Positions 3,868-38,514 of a DNA stretch of 64,000 nt are shown one piece after another. Every line of letters starts with the position of its first letter. The first letter of the stretch is position 1. Source of the DNA: Clostridia bacterium (lineage in GTDB: Bacteria > Bacillota > Peptococcia > Peptococcales > BICA1-8); the NCBI GenBank assembly GCA_012720075.1, contig JAAXZE010000068.1:274-64273 (forward strand), given 5' to 3'. Position numbers and translations under genes: made by a program. A model generated the notes under the pieces. That model worked only from the letters and a program-made list of their open reading frames with translations. It was not told the origin of the DNA and ran no database searches.

Positions 3868-4735
3868 AAAACGCGGCATCGGTGGCAGTGATGCTGCCGC
3901 TATTGCCGGTCTTTCTCCATGGAAATCACCCATAGCTGTATGGCTAGAGAAGACCAGTCAAGTTGAACCGGAAGAGCCAGGAGAAGCGGCTTACTGGGGG
4001 AAGGTGCTGGAGGATATTGTGGCGCAGGAGTTCGCCAAGCGGACCGGTTTCAAAGTCCGCCGGCGGAATGCGATTCTTCAACACCATGAGTATCCGTGGA
4101 TGATAGCCAACGTGGATAGGCTAGTAGTTGGCGATAACGCTGGCTTAGAATGCAAGACTACCAGTGCATTCAACGCTAAAGAATGGGAACAAGACGAAGT
4201 ACCGGCGCAGTATTTAGTTCAAGTCCAGCACTATATGGCAGTTACCGGTTACTCTGCTTGGTGGCTTGCGGTCCTAATCGGTGGCAATACATTTATCTAT
4301 AAGAAAATTGAACGGGATAATGAACTTATCCAGCAACTTATCGAGATTGAAAAAGACTTCTGGGAAAATCATGTTCTAGCCGGTGTTCCGCCGGAAATGG
4401 ACGGTTCCACGGCATCTACTGAACTCTTGCAACGTATGTATCCAGAAGGAAAACCAGCCGCAATAGATCTCCCTAGTGACGCAGGTGAATTGATAGAAAC
4501 CCTGGATTTTTTGAATGAGGAACTAAAAGCACTCGAAGAACGAAAAGCAGAATGTGAGAACCGGTTGAAAGCAATGTTGGGCGAGAATGAGGCAGGCCGG
4601 TTCGGTGAACGACTTGTTACATGGAAGAATATTGTGAGTAATCGATTTGACAGCAAAACTTTCGCTAAAGATTATCCAGAGCTATATGAGAAATACTTGA
4701 AAACATCTAAATACCGGAAATTTGCAGTGAAATAG
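3806..4735 (+). CDS. YqaJ-like viral recombinase-domain exonuclease
   Basis: RSEWLEYRKRGIGGSDAAAIAGLSPWKSP...LECKT is the YqaJ/lambda-Exo-type pattern. ATG 3806 follows GGAGGTGA. The track's 3626 start looks like an over-extension. Confidence 0.85.
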   Translation: MTAQVLVSTLDMERSEWLEYRKRGIGGSDAAAIAGLSPWKSPIAVWLEKTSQVEPEEPGEAAYWGKVLEDIVAQEFAKRTGFKVRRRNAILQHHEYPWMIANVDRLVVGDNAGLECKTTSAFNAKEWEQDEVPAQYLVQVQHYMAVTGYSAWWLAVLIGGNTFIYKKIERDNELIQQLIEIEKDFWENHVLAGVPPEMDGSTASTELLQRMYPEGKPAAIDLPSDAGELIETLDFLNEELKALEERKAECENRLKAMLGENEAGRFGERLVTWKNIVSNRFDSKTFAKDYPELYEKYLKTSKYRKFAVK

Positions 4736-10335: not shown

Positions 10336-10608
10336 ATGGCTGAAACGATGGCTCCTCAGCGGATAAAAAGGATAATGCAATATACGCCAGAGCAATTCTG
10401 TAAAGCAAATAAAGAGCAGGACATTAGGCGTATGTATCTGCGGGAAATACAGGAACATATCGATGCTACAGATGAAACACTTACCGAAATATCCAAAAAT
10501 CCACTACCAGAAGAATTAAGGCACTTTGAGAATGAATTTTTGCACGAACGTGAAATATTGGTCCACTGGGTTGATGTTTTAAAGAAGGAGGTTGAAAGGG
10601 ATGAGTGA
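10336..10608 (+). CDS. hypothetical protein
   Basis: ATG 10336 follows TAGGAGGT. No family recognised. Confidence 0.5.
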   Translation: MAETMAPQRIKRIMQYTPEQFCKANKEQDIRRMYLREIQEHIDATDETLTEISKNPLPEELRHFENEFLHEREILVHWVDVLKKEVERDE

Positions 10609-11149
10609 GGAAGTTAAAAGAAATTGCAACACATGTAAATTTGGGATGTTTGAGAGATGCGATACGCTAAAGAATAACGAGCAATATCAAAAAATTAAAG
10701 ACAACGGATTGTTTGACACTGGCAAATGGGAGTTCAAAAAAAATTTTATCTGTGACAATTATAAAAGCGTATATATTGAATACCCTATCGAAGTTTCAAA
10801 GATTAATCAAGATACTAATATGTCTGGCTTCATGGATGATGAAATAGGTAGATTTGTTAGAGTAAGACCATGTGCCAAGGAATATCAGAATAAAACATAT
10901 TTAGGCTTGTATCTTGGTGAATTGCCAGTAGGGCTTCAAATATCACATAATTCAGAAACAAAAGAGTTGAATGTAAGATTTAATATTAACCCTGCAATAT
11001 TCGTGTTTGATTTAAAGAAAATCATATACGGCTGCGAAAGTTGGTGGGGATTTATCGAAAGCGAAGATGAATTAAGAACAATTACAGATATTGACATTGA
11101 AAATGTTTGGTATGTAAAAGCGTTAGAGGCTTTGAGTCAGGAGAAATAA
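10601..11149 (+). CDS. hypothetical protein with N-terminal Cys cluster
   Basis: ATG 10601 lies 9 nt after GAAGGAGG. CNTCKFGMFERC motif. Confidence 0.55.
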   Translation: MSEEVKRNCNTCKFGMFERCDTLKNNEQYQKIKDNGLFDTGKWEFKKNFICDNYKSVYIEYPIEVSKINQDTNMSGFMDDEIGRFVRVRPCAKEYQNKTYLGLYLGELPVGLQISHNSETKELNVRFNINPAIFVFDLKKIIYGCESWWGFIESEDELRTITDIDIENVWYVKALEALSQEK

Positions 11150-11373
11150 AGCGAGATAAACATACTATGATTACTTGAAATCCATTAAAATCAACCCTTA
11201 TCGTGTATGGTTTTAGGGTAATAGAAAAGTTTTCTTTAGGCACAAATTGTAATAAGGATTATGAGTATGAGGGTTTCGGTGTGGACATAACCACATTATT
11301 GAAAATTATGGATAAGGGAAAATTTTAAAAATTTTTCCCTTAAATCCACACTGAATGTTAAATACCCAAAAAT

Positions 11374-11389
11374 TGCGACTTTTCTGCGA
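11374..11389 (+). repeat. 16-mer TGCGACTTTTCTGCGA, copy 2
   Basis: Identical to copy 1. Followed by TATAAT (11412-11417) and a hairpin terminator. Confidence 0.8.
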
Positions 11390-11428
11390 CTACTTTTAAA
11401 AGGAAATAGTTTATAATATATACTGAGG

Positions 11429-11456
11429 AGCCGTCCGGGAGGGCGGCTTTTGGTTT
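11429..11456 (+). terminator. intrinsic terminator, plus strand
   Basis: agccgtcc-ggga-gggcggct stem-loop followed by ttttggttt. Confidence 0.65.
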
Positions 11457-11483
11457 AGAAAAAGCCTGTACATTCGTACAGGC
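11457..11483 (-). terminator. intrinsic terminator, minus strand (ends the moron operon)
   Basis: gcctgtac-attc-gtacaggc stem, with a T-run on the minus strand (aaaaa 11459-11463). Confidence 0.65.
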
Positions 11484-11503
11484 CAAGAGGGATTTTGTGT
11501 CAA

Positions 11504-11635
11504 TTAACTAAATTCTGTGTTATTACATCTGGGGCACGGTGGTAAAGTATCGGTGTCATCATCTAACACAACAGTCTGACCGCACTTTGTACAAGTATAA
11601 ACTCCTGCTCCTGGTTTTTCACCTGTAGTTGGCAT
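11504..11635 (-). CDS. 43-aa zinc-ribbon protein
   Basis: Hand translation gives MPTTGEKPGAGVYTCTKCGQTVVLDDDTDTLPPCPRCNNTEFS. AAGGAGGTGA RBS. Two CxxC pairs. Below the ORF-track cut-off. Confidence 0.5.
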   Translation of the reverse strand: MPTTGEKPGAGVYTCTKCGQTVVLDDDTDTLPPCPRCNNTEFS

Positions 11636-11679
11636 AGATTTCACCTCCTTGTTAGCGTTGTTATAAAGTTAAAATCTAG

Positions 11680-11916
11680 TTAATATTTGGTGTCTTTTGG
11701 CGGACAGGGATCATTTCCGTAGCTGTCTTTATCTCTAATTCGCCCTTTTCTATCGTGGATTACTACTTCAGAACTTTGGTTTTTGGCGATGTCTTTGGCA
11801 ATGTTTATAGCCTCAGCTTGCGTAGGGGTGCGGGCTGTGGCTTTTTTGTTCCCTGCTCCTTTGACTTGCCAGCCGCCATCTGGATGCGGGGTAACGTGTT
11901 GGTTCTTTCCAGCCAT
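11680..11916 (-). CDS. DUF2188-like small protein
   Basis: MAGKNQHVTPHPDGGWQVKGAGNKKATARTPTQAEAINIAKDIAKNQSSEVVIHDRKGRIRDKDSYGNDPCPPKD. AGGAGGTGA RBS precedes ATG 11916. The 158-aa track ORF looks like an over-extension. Confidence 0.6.
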   Translation of the reverse strand: MAGKNQHVTPHPDGGWQVKGAGNKKATARTPTQAEAINIAKDIAKNQSSEVVIHDRKGRIRDKDSYGNDPCPPKDTKY

Positions 11917-11983
11917 GTTAATCACCTCCTTTCTATGACAAAATTCTCCAATAAGTAGCAAATACCTTTTTGGAGGTGGTATA

Positions 11984-12163
11984 ATGTGCAAAGTCCTTTT
12001 ATTATACCAGTGGGAAGTATTTGAATTTCCGTGGGGTACGGCAGTAAGGGAACAGCGAACAAATACCTGGATAAAGCTATTCCTTAAACCGGATGGGCAA
12101 GAAATAGATTTGTCTGGCAGGAAAGTAGAATTGCATGAGAATGGGATTGAGTTCATTATATAA
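11984..12163 (+). CDS. possible 59-aa protein
   Basis: Hand translation gives MCKVLLLYQWEVFEFPWGTAVREQRTNTWIKLFLKPDGQEIDLSGRKVELHENGIEFII. GGAGGTGG lies 5 nt upstream. The same bases also read as an extended -10 (TGGTATAAT). Confidence 0.3.
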   Translation: MCKVLLLYQWEVFEFPWGTAVREQRTNTWIKLFLKPDGQEIDLSGRKVELHENGIEFII

Positions 12164-12241
12164 TGTGGGACTCAAGTTCATTTTTGTGCAGGAAGTTGCC
12201 TTCTTTTGCCGAATTTTGGTGGTGAAAGGAGGTGAGTTTAG

Positions 12242-12721
12242 ATGAGTGAAAAACAAAAGAAACCAATTTATAAACGCTGGTGGTTTATCGCAATAGTAAT
12301 AGTTTTTCTAATAGGACTAATAGGTGGTGGTGGCGAAGATGAAGCAGGCCAAGATAATACAATTACAGAAGGGAAAACAGAGGAACCAGTTGAAGAAAAG
12401 AAAACAGATAATATCCCACGTGAGTACAGGAATGCCTTAAGAGCTGCACAGAACTATGTAGACATTATGCCCTTTTCTAAAAAAGGATTATTCAACCAAT
12501 TAACTTCTGAATATGGAGACCACTATCCAGAAGATGCCGCTCGATATGCAATTGAGAATGTAAAAGTAGATTGGCGTGAAGAGGCATTAGAGGCGGCTAT
12601 TAACTATCTAAAAATTATGCCTATGTCAGACAAGGAATTATTTGACCAGTTAACATCTGAATATGGGGAACAGTTTACTGAGGAAGAAGCACGGTATGCT
12701 ATTGAGAATTTACCAGATTAA
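12242..12721 (+). CDS. Ltp-like membrane-anchored superinfection-exclusion-type protein
   Basis: N-terminal TM helix (WWFIAIVIVFLIGLIGGGG) plus two tandem Ltp-type repeats (A..Y...MPFSKKGLFNQLTSEYGDHYPEDAARYAIEN / ...MPMSDKELFDQLTSEYGEQFTEEEARYAIEN). Confidence 0.7.
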   Translation: MSEKQKKPIYKRWWFIAIVIVFLIGLIGGGGEDEAGQDNTITEGKTEEPVEEKKTDNIPREYRNALRAAQNYVDIMPFSKKGLFNQLTSEYGDHYPEDAARYAIENVKVDWREEALEAAINYLKIMPMSDKELFDQLTSEYGEQFTEEEARYAIENLPD

Positions 12722-12746
12722 AAAGAGCCTTTGGGCTCTTTTTCTT
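12722..12746 (+). terminator. intrinsic terminator after the ltp-like gene
   Basis: gagcc-tttg-ggctc hairpin followed by tttttctttt. Confidence 0.6.
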
Positions 12747-12840
12747 TTGCGGGTCCTTCTGGAGATTTTTAAGGATTGCGGGTCTGGCGACGCCCGAAAT
12801 TCGTTTAGGCATAAAAAAATTTTTTTGAGGTTTTCTTTCC
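12747..12840 (+). other. candidate cos / terminase recognition region
   Basis: TTGCGGGTC occurs twice (12747, 12776). There is a local GC-rich block ggtctggcgacgcccg and an A7T7 tract (12823-12837). The region lies immediately upstream of the Nu1-like terS. Confidence 0.35.
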
Positions 12841-12862: not shown

Positions 12863-13462
12863 ATGGCAATAAATGCAAAAAAAGATATTTCTGATTTAAT
12901 AGTTAATACTGATGTTATGGCTGACCTGCTTGGTTTCACACGTCAGCGTGTGAACCAACTGGATAAAGAAGGGGTTTTAGTAAAAGCTGCTCCTGGTCGT
13001 TGGCCTTTGGCTGACAACATAAAAAAATATTTAGAATTTGTAAAGTATGGCCAAAGAACTAGTGAAGAAGAAGAGGCAGAAATACAGTATTGGGAAGAAA
13101 AAGCGTTACATGAGAAAGCTAAAAGAGAAACGGCAGAATTGAAACTTGCCAAGATGCAAAATCAACTTCATGATGCAAGGGACGTGGAGTTAGCTCTTAC
13201 TAATATGGTAGTTACTTTCAGAAATAAAGTTTTATCTATTCCTCAGAAACTTGCCCCAAAAATTATCGGTTTGGATAACTTGGCGGAAATTACCGAGGCC
13301 ATAAATGAAGAATTATATGAGGCGCTGACTGAGCTAAGTGAATATGACCCGGCCATGTTTGCTGGAGGTGAGGAAATCATTGAAATTGAAGAGGAAGACG
13401 ATCAGGTTATTTCAGAGGATAATCAAGAAGGTTGCACCTCCACCGAAACTGACAGTAAGTGA
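12863..13462 (+). CDS. terminase small subunit (Nu1-like HTH)
   Basis: MADLLGFTRQRVNQLDKEGVL is HTH-like, with a coiled-coil acidic C-terminus. Lies directly before the GpA-type TerL. Confidence 0.7.
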   Translation: MAINAKKDISDLIVNTDVMADLLGFTRQRVNQLDKEGVLVKAAPGRWPLADNIKKYLEFVKYGQRTSEEEEAEIQYWEEKALHEKAKRETAELKLAKMQNQLHDARDVELALTNMVVTFRNKVLSIPQKLAPKIIGLDNLAEITEAINEELYEALTELSEYDPAMFAGGEEIIEIEEEDDQVISEDNQEGCTSTETDSK

Positions 13463-15251
13463 ATGGGCTGATAGGTACCGAAAACTATCCCCCGAAAATG
13501 CCGCTGAACCGGGGCAGTGGCGAACAGATAGGGCTCCGTATCAGCGTGAAATAATGGATTGTGTTACAGACCCCAGAATTGAAAAAGTTGTAATTATGTC
13601 CAGCTCACAAATTGGAAAATCAGAAATAATAAATAATATAATTGGCTACTTTATCGACATAGATCCAGGACCCTTATTACTGGTACAACCAACTATAGAA
13701 ATTGCCCAGGATTATTCCAAAAGACGGATAACTCCAATGATTAAAGATACTGAGGTTTTGGCTGAAAAAGTAGCCGATTCTAAAACCCGTGATTTGAACA
13801 ACACTATACTTATGAAAGTATTTCCCGGAGGTTTTTTGGCTATGGCCGGTGCAAATAGCCCAGCCGGATTAGCCAGCAGACCTATCCGGGTTCTTTTATG
13901 TGATGAAGTAGACAGATATCCTGATAGTGCTGGCAGTGAAGGAGACCCAATAGGATTAGCGGAAAAAAGAACAACAACTTTTTATAACAGGAAGAAAATA
14001 TTTGTAAGTACACCAACTATTAAGGGTATTTCCAGGATTGAGGCAGAGTATGAACTTGGGACACAAGAAAAATGGTGTGTTAAGTGCCCTGGTTGTGGAA
14101 ACTATCATTTTATTGAATTGCGAGATATTCAATTTGATTATGAAAAAATAGAGTCAAATCGAAAAATAACCTATTTGGTTCATGATGTTAAATGGAAGTG
14201 CCCTAGCTGTTTAGAAAAATTCGATGAACATACCATTAAGCGGCAGCCAGCTAAATGGATCGCTGATAATCCAGAGGCTATAAATAATGGAATTAGAAGC
14301 TTTCGTTTAAACTCCTTTGTTTCCCCTTGGTATGATTGGAAACGTATAATACAAGAATTTTTGGATACAAAAAACGATCCTGAAAGGTTTAAAGTTTTTG
14401 TTAATACAGTTTTAGGTGAAACTTGGGAAGAAAGAGGAGAAATAGAGGATGAAAACATTCTTCTGGAAAGACGTGAAAAGTATGATGCAGACTTGCCGGA
14501 AGGTGTTTTAGTTCTTACATGTGCAGTAGATACCCAGGATGACCGTTTAGAATATGAAGTGGTTGGATGGGGCCAATATGAAGAATCCTGGGGCATTGAA
14601 AAGGGAATTATTTGGGGAAAACCTAATGATGATTCTACATGGCAGCAACTTGACGATAAATTATCCCAAGTGTGGAGATTTGCGGATGGAACTGGCTTAA
14701 CAGTATCTTGTACTTTTATTGACAGTGGTGGTCACTTCACAGAAGAAGTGTATCTCTATACCAAGGAAAGGCTACAGAACAAGGTTTTTCCCATAAAAGG
14801 TCAGGGTGGTTCTGGCATACCGTTACTTTACAAAATATCCAGAAACAATAAGTACAGGCTCCCGCTAATTTTAATAGGTGTCGATGCAGGAAAAACCAGC
14901 GTAATGCAAAGGCTAAAAATAAAAGAACCTGGGCCTAAGTATTGCCACTTCCCGGAAAACGAAGAAAAAGGTTATGACCAAATGTACTTTAAAGGGTTGA
15001 TTTCAGAAAAACAAGTGATTAGGAAAAGCAAAGGGCAACCTGTTACTGTTTGGGAAAGTATTGCTCCTGATAAAAGAAATGAACCCTTAGATTTACGTGT
15101 ATATAACTTAGCGGCTTTACATTTATTAAAGCCTAATTTTGATGCCTTAGAAAAAAAGCTAAGAGAAACACCTATGGAAAGCGCAAACATTCCTAAAAAA
15201 GTAGTATCCAAAAAGTCAAAAAGAAGAGTAATATCAAAAGGTATTTATTGA
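13338..15251 (+). CDS. terminase large subunit, GpA family
   Basis: TVSEWADRYRKLSPENAAEPGQWRTDRAPYQREIMD and LLCDEVDRYP are lambda gpA-like. The exact start is uncertain because it overlaps terS. Confidence 0.9.
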   Translation: MNMTRPCLLEVRKSLKLKRKTIRLFQRIIKKVAPPPKLTVSEWADRYRKLSPENAAEPGQWRTDRAPYQREIMDCVTDPRIEKVVIMSSSQIGKSEIINNIIGYFIDIDPGPLLLVQPTIEIAQDYSKRRITPMIKDTEVLAEKVADSKTRDLNNTILMKVFPGGFLAMAGANSPAGLASRPIRVLLCDEVDRYPDSAGSEGDPIGLAEKRTTTFYNRKKIFVSTPTIKGISRIEAEYELGTQEKWCVKCPGCGNYHFIELRDIQFDYEKIESNRKITYLVHDVKWKCPSCLEKFDEHTIKRQPAKWIADNPEAINNGIRSFRLNSFVSPWYDWKRIIQEFLDTKNDPERFKVFVNTVLGETWEERGEIEDENILLERREKYDADLPEGVLVLTCAVDTQDDRLEYEVVGWGQYEESWGIEKGIIWGKPNDDSTWQQLDDKLSQVWRFADGTGLTVSCTFIDSGGHFTEEVYLYTKERLQNKVFPIKGQGGSGIPLLYKISRNNKYRLPLILIGVDAGKTSVMQRLKIKEPGPKYCHFPENEEKGYDQMYFKGLISEKQVIRKSKGQPVTVWESIAPDKRNEPLDLRVYNLAALHLLKPNFDALEKKLRETPMESANIPKKVVSKKSKRRVISKGIY

Positions 15252-35472: not shown

Positions 35473-35520
35473 TAACACAGTTTTATCTGTGCTATGTCCG
35501 GGTGGTTATTTTTTTACTTA
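35461..35520 (+). terminator. riboswitch expression platform (terminator)
   Basis: CCGCCTGG (pseudoknot strand) can pair with CCGGGTGG (35498-35505), followed by TTATTTTTTT. Confidence 0.6.
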
Positions 35521-35535
35521 AGGGGTGTATTAAGT

Positions 35536-37767
35536 ATGAGGAAAGAATGGCACGGTTTTAAAGGAGAAAAATGGCAAAAGGAAATTGATGTGAGGGATTT
35601 TATCATAAACAATTATTCACCTTACGCCGGCGATGACTCTTTCCTTTGCAGGGAAACAGAAAGAACAAAAAAGCTGTGGGAAAAATGCTTGGAACTCTTT
35701 AAGCAGGAAAGGGCTAAAGGAGGGGTCATTAGTATTGATACCTCCCGTGTTGCGGGCATTACTTCCCATGGACCTGGCTATATTTGCAAAGAGCTGGAAG
35801 TTATTGTGGGTTTACAAACCGAAAAACCCCTGGAACGGGCTGTTAACCCCTTCGGTGGGCTAAGAATGGCCAGGGAAGCCTGTAAGGCATATGGTTATTC
35901 CTTTGATGAACAGTTGGAGAAGATTTTTACCGATTATAGAAAAACTCATAATGACGGAGTTTTTGACGCCTATACCAGTGAAATGCGGATGGCCAGAAGT
36001 CTGGGTATTATTACCGGATTACCCGATGCCTATGGAAGAGGAAGGGTTATCGGCGATTATAGGAGAGTAGCTCTTTATGGTGTGGATAGACTCATCGCCG
36101 AAAAAGAGAATGATTTGCAGCGGATGTCTAAAGTAAGTATGAATTTTGAAACCATTCAGCTGAGAGAAGAAATCAGTGAACAAATAAAAGCATTACAGCT
36201 TTTAAAAGATATGGCCCTTCAATACGGTTTTGATATCAGCAACCCGGCTGCCAATGCCAGGGAGGCGTTTCAATGGGTATACTTTGCCTACCTTGCCGCT
36301 ATCAAAGAACAAAACGGAGCAGCCATGTCCCTGGGGCGTGTCAGCACTTTTCTTGATATTTATATCAACAGAGATATGGAAGCAGGTGTTTTATCAGAAA
36401 TCGAAGCCCAGGAACTGGTTGACCAGTTTGTTATAAAGCTTAGAATGGCACGGCAGTTAAGAACCCCTGATTATGACAAGTTATTTGCCGGGGATCCAAT
36501 GTGGATTACTGAAGCCATTGGCGGCATGGGGCTTGATGGCCGTACTTTGGTAACCAAGAACTCATTCAGATTTCTCCAGACTCTAATTAATCTCGGTCCT
36601 TCACCGGAACCGAATCTGACCGTATTATGGTCTACCCAATTACCGGAGAATTTTAAGAACTTTTGTTCAGCAATCTCCATTAAAACCAGCTCTATCCAAT
36701 ATGAAAATGACGATCTAATGCGCGGCCTGTATGGGGATGACTACGGTATTGCTTGCTGTGTATCTGCTATGAAGCTGGTAAAACAAATGCAATTTTTCGG
36801 GGCTCGGGCCAATCTGCCCAAATTATTATTGCTGGCTGTTAATGGAGGCAGGGATGAAATAACCGGTAAACAATTGGCACCTGTTGTTCCGATCTTGAAT
36901 GATGAGGTTTTAGACTATGAAAAGGTTATGAGCAATTTAGCCGTTCTCCAGGATTGGCTGTGCGGTTTGTATGTAAATACTATGAACATTATTCATTACA
37001 TGCACGATAAGTATGCCTATGAAAAAATTCAAATGGCTCTCCATGATAGCTCTGTCGAAAGGCTGATGGCCTTTGGTATAGCCGGTTTGTCGGTCATTGT
37101 CGATTCCTTAAGCGCCATTAAGTACGCCAAAGTTTACCCGGTTAGAAATGATGAGGGCATTACGGTGGACTTTAAAATTGAAGGTGATTTTCCTAAATTC
37201 GGTAATGATGACGACAGGGTTGACAATATTGCTGTTGAACTGGTCAAGAGTTTTAGCAAAAACCTGGAAAAGTACCCGACTTACCGTGGAGCTAAGCATA
37301 CACTCTCCATATTAACCATAACCTCTAACGTAATGTATGGCAAAAAAACCGGTGCGACACCGGACGGCAGAAAACATGGTGAGCCCTTTGCCCCAGGAGC
37401 TAATCCCATGCATGGCAGGGATACCAACGGCGCCCTTGCCAGTCTGAACTCGGTGGCAAAACTTCCTTATGATGCCTGCCTTGACGGGATAAGCAATACC
37501 TTTTCCATAGTACCGAGAGCTCTGGGGAAAAATTATGATGAAAGAAGAAATAACTTAATGAATATTCTTGACGGATACTTTGGTCAGGGCGCCCATCATT
37601 TAAACGTTAACGTTCTTGACCGGGAAACCTTGATAAAAGCCATGGATGAGCCGGAAAACTATCCTCAGTTAACTGTCAGGGTATCCGGGTATGCGGTGCA
37701 TTTTACTAAACTAAGCCGCGCCCACCAGCAGGAAATCATCCAGCGAACCTTCTTTGAAAAATTTTAA
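35536..37767 (+). CDS. pflB: pyruvate formate-lyase (glycyl radical enzyme)
   Basis: GIACCVSAM active-site Cys pair and RVSGYAVHF glycyl-radical motif. ATG 35536 follows AAGGGGTG. The track start at 35494 lies inside the terminator. Confidence 0.95.
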
Positions 37768-37782
37768 TCCGGAGGGAAACTT

Positions 37783-38514
37783 ATGACGGGCAGAATTCAT
37801 TCCATTGAGAGCTGCGGTACCTTGGACGGTCCGGGATTGCGCTGTGTTGTTTTCTTTCAGGGCTGTCCCCTCAGATGTCGCTATTGTCATAACCCGGATA
37901 CTTGGGATTTTAACGGTGGGCTGGAAGTGACCTCCTCGGAAATAGTTAAAAAAATTATCCGCTTCAAACCCTATTTTAAGCAGAATGGCGGTGTAACCTT
38001 ATCCGGGGGGGAACCCTTATTGCAGCCGGAATTTGCAGCCGAAATTTTACGGGAATGCAAAAGAAACGGAATTCACACAGCGGTGGATACTTCCGGCTGG
38101 GTTAGTACCGCGGCCCTGGAACATACACTGCCCTATACCGATTTGCTGCTTTTAGATGTAAAAGGGCTGGATAACAAAATGTATCAGTGGCTCACCGGCA
38201 AAGAAGAGGATATGTTTTTTTCTGCCCTTACAACCATAAAAAAATACAAAACTCCCCTCTGGCTTAGATATGTAATTTTGCCAGGCATTAACGATACTCC
38301 TGAGTATATTGGTAAACTAAAGATTTTAGCTTCTTCTTTGGGTAGTATGGTTCAGAAAATAGAACTATTGCCTTATCACCCCCTGGGAGAACACAAGTGG
38401 AAAAAATTAGGGTATGAATATACGCTGAGTCAGATAAATCCACCTAAGGACAGTGACATTGACCTTTTGTACCAAAAACTCCGCAAAAACAGTCCTGTTA
38501 TAAATTTTTCTTAG
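37783..38514 (+). CDS. pflA: pyruvate formate-lyase activating enzyme (radical SAM)
   Basis: GCPLRCRYCHNPDTW CxxxCxxC motif. TLSGGEPLLQ. Confidence 0.95.
   Translation: MTGRIHSIESCGTLDGPGLRCVVFFQGCPLRCRYCHNPDTWDFNGGLEVTSSEIVKKIIRFKPYFKQNGGVTLSGGEPLLQPEFAAEILRECKRNGIHTAVDTSGWVSTAALEHTLPYTDLLLLDVKGLDNKMYQWLTGKEEDMFFSALTTIKKYKTPLWLRYVILPGINDTPEYIGKLKILASSLGSMVQKIELLPYHPLGEHKWKKLGYEYTLSQINPPKDSDIDLLYQKLRKNSPVINFS

Follow-up and report, generated by a model that had tools for sequence, protein, structure and literature searches.

The superinfection-exclusion protein Ltp of Streptococcus thermophilus phage TP-J34, prototype of its family, consists of a repeat domain joined through a spacer to a lipid anchor, and blocks DNA injection; its reported target is the tape-measure protein (PMC3952083). 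The small domain DUF2188 corresponds to PDC-S16, a PADLOC candidate put forward through guilt-by-embedding in BREX, DISARM or type I restriction-modification (R-M) systems (bioRxiv 10.1101/2024.01.29.577857). It is also linked to defence in the literature by CapH/CapP-regulated operons, as a proposed Thoeris effector and by a gene adjacent to a CBASS operon, and one paper likens it to the N-terminal domain of HicB antitoxins (PMC13621843). DUF1451 proteins (PF07295; PRK11032) are about 160 amino acids (aa) in length and carry a four-cysteine ribbon. Relatives of all three were found side by side, together with a 59-aa open reading frame (ORF59), at positions 11457–12746 of a 64,000-nucleotide stretch of contig JAAXZE010000068.1 from a Clostridia bacterium (assembly GCA_012720075.1), the whole of which is referred to below as the window. 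A first-pass annotation had singled out this locus, with its DUF2188 and zinc-ribbon genes, as the best candidate for an uncharacterised small system. The reading favoured here, at a probability of about 0.68, is instead a mosaic moron island in a low-GC Firmicute prophage, composed of separately evolving units and not of one system, and lying where the early and packaging modules meet, a border prone to recombination. The genes concerned, the exchanged segment and the adjoining terminase genes are as follows.

11369..12194, no strand assigned: horizontally exchanged cassette of 826 bp, with facing terminators, zinc-ribbon gene, DUF2188 gene, divergent control region and ORF59
11504..11635, minus strand: zinc-ribbon micro-protein of 43 aa (CxxC...CxxC), shortened version of the C-terminal ribbon of DUF1451
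11680..11916, minus strand: DUF2188 protein of 78 aa (PF09954, E = 6.9e-27, profile positions 1–62 of 62)
11984..12163, plus strand: ORF59, an all-beta phage-family protein of 59 aa, small gene of the head/packaging module
12242..12721, plus strand: Ltp-domain protein of 159 aa, with N-terminal transmembrane anchor, acidic spacer and two Ltp repeats
12863..13462, plus strand: small terminase subunit terS (phrog_57, E = 9.3e-37), where the packaging module begins
13338..15251: terL (phrog_15, E = 3e-251)

The ORF list and a reading of the sequence confirmed all four small ORFs of the first-pass annotation at these positions, including the hand-found 43-aa zinc-ribbon gene. Co-occurrence of the DUF2188 and zinc-ribbon genes was followed from both sides. 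On the DUF2188 side, 77 IMG/VR loci with relatives 45–79% identical (L077 with a partial match only) were searched by tblastn and scanned for CxxC ORFs within 700 bp, and none held a zinc ribbon near DUF2188 (0/77). On the zinc-ribbon side the sample comprised 172 loci, namely 80 from IMG/VR, 80 of the matches in species-representative genomes (at least 453) and 12 exact-protein contexts; a DUF2188 hidden Markov model matched within ±4 kb in 7/172 (∼4%). These seven matches, from Acutalibacteraceae, Clostridium, Fibrobacteria, Vibrio and Marinobacterium, all adjoined the zinc-ribbon gene on the same strand, in both gene orders, with gaps of 6–40 bp in six loci and ∼390 bp in L223. The nearest relatives stood alone: the closest DUF2188 proteins among those listed (P0096, P0102, and P0106; 82–88% identity) are encoded by lone opposite-strand genes directly 5' of terS, in prophages carrying several different terminases, and in C. 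sporogenes prophages the same slot is occupied by the gene of a 76%-identical zinc ribbon (P0072), again alone and on the opposite strand. Fusions of the two were absent from the 94 zinc-ribbon matches and the 120 listed DUF2188 matches.

Because the nearest relatives are unpaired and co-occurrence is rare, the two are best regarded as independent mobile small genes that favor the same niche and sometimes land together. An obligate two-gene system implies conserved co-occurrence and co-orientation, and these loci gave the counts above, an unfixed gene order and unpaired closest relatives; the small system suggested at first was thus not upheld. Two small adjacent genes between terminators need not form a system. 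Nor is DUF2188 new to the field, being already PADLOC's candidate PDC-S16.

The mosaic character of the island emerged from comparison with other phages. Exact-protein look-ups recovered contigs with an identical DUF2188 protein, which were then aligned to the window. The 826-bp cassette was 98.3% identical to L250 and free of gaps, with only 2 mismatches in its core (11420–12170). L250 is a different phage, with other terS and terL genes and a 244-aa gene where Ltp sits; since the 244-aa protein replaces Ltp there, Ltp lies outside the mobile cassette, and the exchange hints that cargo of varying kind is accommodated downstream of ORF59. A third phage type (L316 and L317), with portal and major capsid protein (MCP) of the SU10 type, encoded an identical ORF59 and shared only window positions 11839–12232 (L316 1241–1634; L317 545–938). 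This stretch covers ORF59 and the first 78 nt of DUF2188, without the zinc ribbon. The DUF2188 gene there is thus a truncated remnant, which shows directly that the moron has undergone internal recombination or decay. Together, the L250 and L316/L317 comparisons point to a recombination hot spot with shifting breakpoints, at which the minus-strand genes are dispensable and ORF59 is retained. The 244-aa protein of L250 (3057–3791, minus strand) belonged to PHROG 11520, of unknown function; it could not be called as a defence gene, the matches to Abi_alpha (E = 0.0024) and PDC-S47 (E = 0.021) both being weak.

Profile searches assigned the zinc ribbon to PF07295 and the DUF2188 protein to PF09954, both known families. 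ORF59, the third of the small proteins, had no match in Pfam, PHROG, NCBIfam, or PADLOC, yet phmmer, run exhaustively against 1.84 billion representatives, gave it a family of 75 representative clusters (E ≤ 1e-3). Its relatives were mostly full-length proteins of 57–75 aa, 40–64% identical, with the motif WEVxEFxWGxAV...FLKPDGQEIDV...LHDNGIEF. The AlphaFold2 model (predicted local distance difference test score, pLDDT, of 92.6) was all-beta with seven strands, and Foldseek retrieved no significant neighbor for it from the PDB. A spurious ORF overlapping promoters was ruled out by the homologues and the structure model. In 50 IMG/VR loci the neighbors of ORF59 elsewhere were terS, terL, portal, minor head protein, scaffold, and MCP genes, which makes it a gene of the packaging/head module and not cargo; the same structural-module contexts weakened its candidacy as a regulator paired with DUF2188. 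The ORF that the first pass listed as a possible one is therefore real; its family belongs to the late/packaging module, and it is a commoner neighbor of DUF2188 than is the zinc ribbon. The parts of the island thus come from known families (Ltp, DUF2188/PDC-S16, and the DUF1451 ribbon), with ORF59 an unnamed but ordinary head-module protein.

The Ltp-like protein was described at first pass as membrane-anchored with two Ltp repeats, and both features were recovered. It matched PF07553 in two stretches (E = 3.6e-42) and phrog_4980, "superinfection exclusion" (E = 1.5e-53), and its residues 54–157 aligned with both repeats of the TP-J34 Ltp structure (PDB 4EQQ, E = 1.6e-16); the repeats are identical to each other at 28/49 residues. 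It shares with TP-J34 Ltp the tandem repeats, the order of anchor, spacer and repeat domain, and the prophage-borne, moron-like setting. However, it contains zero cysteines, so that the lipobox of the lipoprotein signal typical of the Ltp family is missing, and a hydrophobic helix (residues 13–31, WWFIAIVIVFLIGLIGGGG) follows the Lys/Arg-rich N-terminus; from these two features it is an Ltp-domain protein with another anchor and not a lipoprotein. In addition, the spacer is acidic and Lys-rich whereas that of the prototype is Ser-rich, and the gene lies 5' of terS whereas the prototype is found in the lysogeny module next to int/cI. It is an Ltp-domain homologue of the superinfection-exclusion protein, probably with the same mode of action by analogy with TP-J34, and documents an Ltp variant in which a transmembrane anchor takes the place of the lipid anchor. 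An exact-protein look-up of the Ltp homologue returned no match. The DNA encoding the repeats (window 12452–12562 and 12602–12712) forms an internal direct repeat, 74% identical over 111 nt, which could allow deletion or expansion by recombination.

The DUF2188 protein also matched phrog_3220 (E = 4.7e-33) and both PADLOC profiles of PDC-S16 (E = 2.5e-38, positions 1–74 of 75, and E = 2.5e-37), and more than 2,500 homologous clusters were found. The closest named matches among those listed, ∼80–82% identical, came from Paraclostridium and [Clostridium] sordellii. Like PDC-S16 it is a single small gene product of about 75 aa matching the profile over the full length. The setting differs: in the window it is a prophage moron on the opposite strand, beside the packaging module and followed by the zinc-ribbon gene. 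No BREX, DISARM, or R-M system was found near it, so the embedding that defines PDC-S16 is absent, and, except for the Ltp-type exclusion gene ∼330 bp away, it is surrounded by early and packaging genes of the phage. PDC-S16/DUF2188 is thereby placed in a recurrent opposite-strand slot by terS in Firmicute prophages, which gives context to those who test the candidate.

The AlphaFold2 model of the DUF2188 protein had a beta3-alpha-beta2 fold (pLDDT 76), with the conserved C-terminal tail SYGNDPxPP in its less confident end. None of the Foldseek matches was significant: the top ones were Cas1 N-terminal domains (E = 0.019), and HicB chains followed with probabilities of 0.69–0.85, E-values of 0.12–0.22 and template modelling (TM) scores of ∼0.38 (6hpb_B, E = 0.12, probability 0.85; 6u0i_B, E = 0.18). 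Sequence and profile searches of the PDB returned nothing, and 5JN6 was not recovered. The predicted beta-beta-beta-alpha-beta-beta topology agrees with the core described where DUF2188 was likened to the HicB N-terminal domain (e.g., PDB 6HPB chain B). In contrast to HicB antitoxins, the protein has only 78 aa, with no C-terminal DNA-binding domain and no HicA toxin gene nearby; neither the zinc ribbon nor ORF59, which flank it, matched a toxin family in Pfam, PHROG, NCBIfam, or PADLOC. Elsewhere, gene 42 of Mycobacterium phage prophiT48-1 (L314 2132–2725), annotated as an antitoxin of 197 aa, has a C-terminal DUF2188 domain and immediately follows the gene for a BrnT-like toxin in an M. abscessus prophage.

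The zinc-ribbon protein matched profile positions 102–143 of 146 in PF07295 (E = 2.1e-10; 41.4 bits, cut-off 26.1). It has the four-Cys ribbon in common with DUF1451 proteins, above the gathering score, and is devoid of their N-terminal part of about 100 aa; against NCBIfam PRK11032 it scored 19.3 bits, far under the cut-off of 183. It belongs to a mobile family of its own, of 43–46 aa, with the invariant motif TGEKPG...LPPCP and the consensus MxTTGEKPG..Y.C..CG..V.LDD..DTLPPCP.C. A ribosome-binding site (AAGGAGGTG) lies 7 nt 5' of the ATG, and because the family alignment begins at MxTTGEKPG, the ATG at 11635 (43 aa), the start proposed at first pass, is favored over an upstream GTG at 11644. 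A search of 5.8 billion proteins gave 94 clusters, 64–84% identical, and the matches in species-representative genomes (best identity 86%) extended over most bacterial phyla and two metagenome-assembled genomes of DPANN archaea. Among 113 distinct genes, from loci of 27–70% GC and retrieved with search patterns that demanded two conserved motifs, identity over the 34-aa core was 79% for the protein and 39% at third codon positions, which are close to saturation, a difference that indicates long-term purifying selection. A Pfam scan of 150 zinc-ribbon neighbors revealed no dominant partner; helix-turn-helix (HTH) proteins, DNA methyltransferases, DUF2188, integrases and TIR domains each accounted for 2–4/150, and DUF2188 tied with N6_Mtase and HTH_3 for second place after HTH_17. 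Two uncharacterised micro-protein families thus emerge from the locus, ORF59 and the zinc ribbon, the latter being the most intriguing by-product of the analysis.

Other contexts of the zinc ribbon were recorded alongside. The loci L078–L083, which encode zinc-ribbon protein P0004, belong to an integrase-rich element that is island-like and not prophage-like, and in L079 and L081 the zinc-ribbon gene is followed by one for a 1001-aa DUF499 protein. A conserved protein of ∼105–120 aa (...RGKPAAM...EGW.TLWIYK...HWILGKLFGY...), encoded at 4119–4448 of L084 (minus strand), had relatives in 31/157 zinc-ribbon loci (e.g., L101, L126, and L192). It had no Pfam or PADLOC match and is absent from the window. 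In Clostridium and Brevibacillus prophages its gene and the zinc-ribbon gene run toward each other, and most loci have overlapping or abutting 3' ends (∼22 nt overlap in L084).

The island was bounded by its own terminators on both sides, as first annotated, and the signals read within and around it were the following.

11422..11460, plus strand: intrinsic terminator of the upstream early operon (hairpin −19.1 kcal/mol, z = −3.9), followed by UUUUGGUUU
11457..11484, minus strand: intrinsic terminator of the DUF2188/zinc-ribbon operon (hairpin 11463–11484 and U-tract), from a pattern scan (9-bp stem, 5 G-C pairs, T-run)
11977..11985, plus strand: mirror-image TGGTATAAT, read from the sequence, overlapping the ORF59 ribosome-binding site and ATG
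12002..12010, minus strand: candidate extended −10 element TGGTATAAT for the DUF2188 operon, read from the sequence, inside the 5' end of ORF59
12135..12164, plus strand: promoter-like site 5' of the Ltp gene, from a consensus scan (ATGAGA-18-TATAAT, 10/12 matches)
12720..12748, plus strand: intrinsic terminator after the Ltp gene (10-bp stem and U-run, −13.9 kcal/mol)

When folding was compared with shuffled sequences, the minus-strand terminator hairpin (−14.6 kcal/mol) had a z of −4.5; that of the Ltp gene was less convincing, with a z of only −2.4, and was missed by the pattern scan. The presence of the early-operon terminator makes the left border a pair of facing terminators. Upstream of DUF2188 genes (88 distinct regions), TGnTAnAAT occurred in 24/88 in sense and 2/88 in antisense, against a shuffle mean of 1.9, mostly 20–30 nt 5' of the start codon, and in compact DUF2188/ORF59 pairs the short spacer bears TGnTATAAT on the DUF2188 strand. 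From this pattern the extended −10 element likely drives the DUF2188 operon. Lysogenic expression of the minus-strand operon would be in keeping with its layout; in annotated phages DUF2188 was also found opposite to early lytic genes and, in one case, on the same strand as the repressor. The elements at 11977–11985 and 12002–12010 form a 9-bp inverted repeat of putative promoter or operator function, which as RNA (11977–12010) folded no better than shuffles (z = −0.6). Sites like that at 12135..12164 were not enriched over shuffles and are weak evidence for an Ltp promoter. Rfam gave only sub-threshold, terminator-like matches in the ORF59 region, and no riboswitch or small RNA.

On the favored reading, the mosaic would consist of three units. 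The first would be the opposite-strand operon running from DUF2188 to the zinc ribbon, which likely starts from an extended −10 promoter and ends at a terminator of its own, and in which two widespread stand-alone mobile genes have been joined in a slot that each fills alone elsewhere. The second would be ORF59, normally a gene of the head/packaging module, placed head-to-head with DUF2188, and the third an Ltp-type gene, likewise equipped with a terminator, that was inserted between ORF59 and terS. With the N-terminal helix in the membrane and the two repeats presumably facing outward, the Ltp homologue may block DNA injection of superinfecting siphophages via the tape-measure protein, as homology with TP-J34 Ltp suggests. 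Expression of DUF2188 and the zinc ribbon from the prophage would probably not depend on the lytic programme, the two most likely acting as separate single-protein factors, and DUF2188 may be a small protein-binding module, similar to the HicB N-terminal domain and tied to defence or toxin-antitoxin functions.

Several observations weigh against this reading. Adjacency of DUF2188 and the zinc ribbon is rare yet not random, which makes an optional functional link conceivable. The pair in the window looks co-transcribed by design, with a 44-nt gap, no internal terminator and a ribosome-binding site for each gene, and the two travel together at ∼99.8% identity. DUF2188/ORF59 adjacency is frequent (14/46 ORF-level loci) and survives divergence of DUF2188 to 52–58% identity. 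Moreover, the HicB-like fold is without statistical support (Foldseek E = 0.12), and we infer lysogenic expression, the activity of Ltp and that of DUF2188 or the zinc ribbon alike.

The first two of these observations would be accommodated by an optional two-component module of DUF2188 and zinc ribbon (e.g., effector and sensor or inhibitor) serving defence or anti-defence, an explanation we consider possible but unlikely. It accounts for the single operon in the window, for the 7/7 same-strand DUF2188 matches next to the zinc ribbon in three phyla (Firmicutes, Fibrobacteria, and Gammaproteobacteria), for the shared second rank of DUF2188 among zinc-ribbon neighbors and for exchange of the pair between phages as a unit. 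However, co-occurrence was 0/77 and ∼4%, the nearest relatives of each gene do without the other, no fusions were seen, and the third phage lost both genes and kept ORF59; chance juxtaposition is explained by the occurrence of each alone in the same terS-proximal slot. Somewhat more doubtful is the idea that the zinc-ribbon protein is a mobile-element effector binding a universally conserved target, alone or with DUF2188 in the 0.83-kb cassette, as a new type of minimal defence or host-modulation function. Strong conservation across phyla is what would be expected of such a binder, and it can also be read in favor of a phage-serving role of the small genes, in which DUF2188 would act as an orphan antitoxin-like decoy while a conserved host machine would be inhibited by the zinc ribbon, both directed against host toxin-antitoxin or abortive infection systems. 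The likeness of DUF2188 to the HicB N-terminal domain (PMC13621843), the HicB Foldseek probabilities and the DUF2188 domain at the C-terminus of the mycobacterial antitoxin beside a BrnT-like toxin speak for this role. We nevertheless consider it very improbable, because the fold match is non-significant, DUF2188 is embedded in host defence systems, and the genes lie opposite to the lytic units with promoter-like elements and a terminator of their own, the classic layout of a lysogen-expressed moron.

The functional unit could also be the head-to-head DUF2188/ORF59 pair, under overlapping control by the 9-bp inverted repeat (TGGTATAAT...ATTATACCA), so that mutual exclusion or regulation would couple the moron to the late genes. 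In the 14/46 loci the start codons were 43–68 bp apart, the frequency was similar when loci were restricted to those with at least 350 bp of upstream sequence (13/42), and L253 and L261 showed the same arrangement; it occurs in two module arrangements and persists despite the sequence divergence noted above. The −10 element of DUF2188 overlaps the ribosome-binding site or 5' end of ORF59, and the L316 remnant retains the 5' end of DUF2188 with ORF59. On the other hand, ∼69% of ORF59 loci are without DUF2188, none of the 77 DUF2188-seeded loci contained ORF59, the inverted repeat is not conserved in other pairs, and ORF59, which is all-beta and lacks a DNA-binding signature, is located among structural genes. 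Most pairs share the order terS-DUF2188-ORF59-terL-portal, so inherited synteny accounts for much of the link, and a DUF2188/ORF59 unit is judged improbable. The mosaic of separately evolving units remains the preferred reading.

The surroundings agree with the placement given at first pass, just upstream of terS and between early and packaging modules. To the left of the island are RecE/RecT, a replication initiator, a RinA-family regulator and YopX, and to the right terS, a lambda-type terL and portal. An accessory (moron) island at this junction, with its own terminators and an opposite-strand two-gene operon, is supported, in agreement with that annotation. A DNA search of the locus against GenBank phages gave short Ltp and DUF2188 matches only, and no related phage. 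The last sizeable gene of the early region (window 10592–11149, plus strand) is a Cys-rich ORF of 185 aa with CNTC...C...C motifs and zero matches in Pfam, PHROGs, NCBIfam, and PADLOC. The endolysin gene lies at ∼34 kb, and host pfl genes, which seem to delimit the prophage on the right, occur from 35.5 kb onward; pyruvate formate-lyase (PFL) and its radical-SAM activase are encoded at window 35494–38514 (plus strand), after the endolysin region. In PHROGs, phrog_21327 also matched PFL over its full length.

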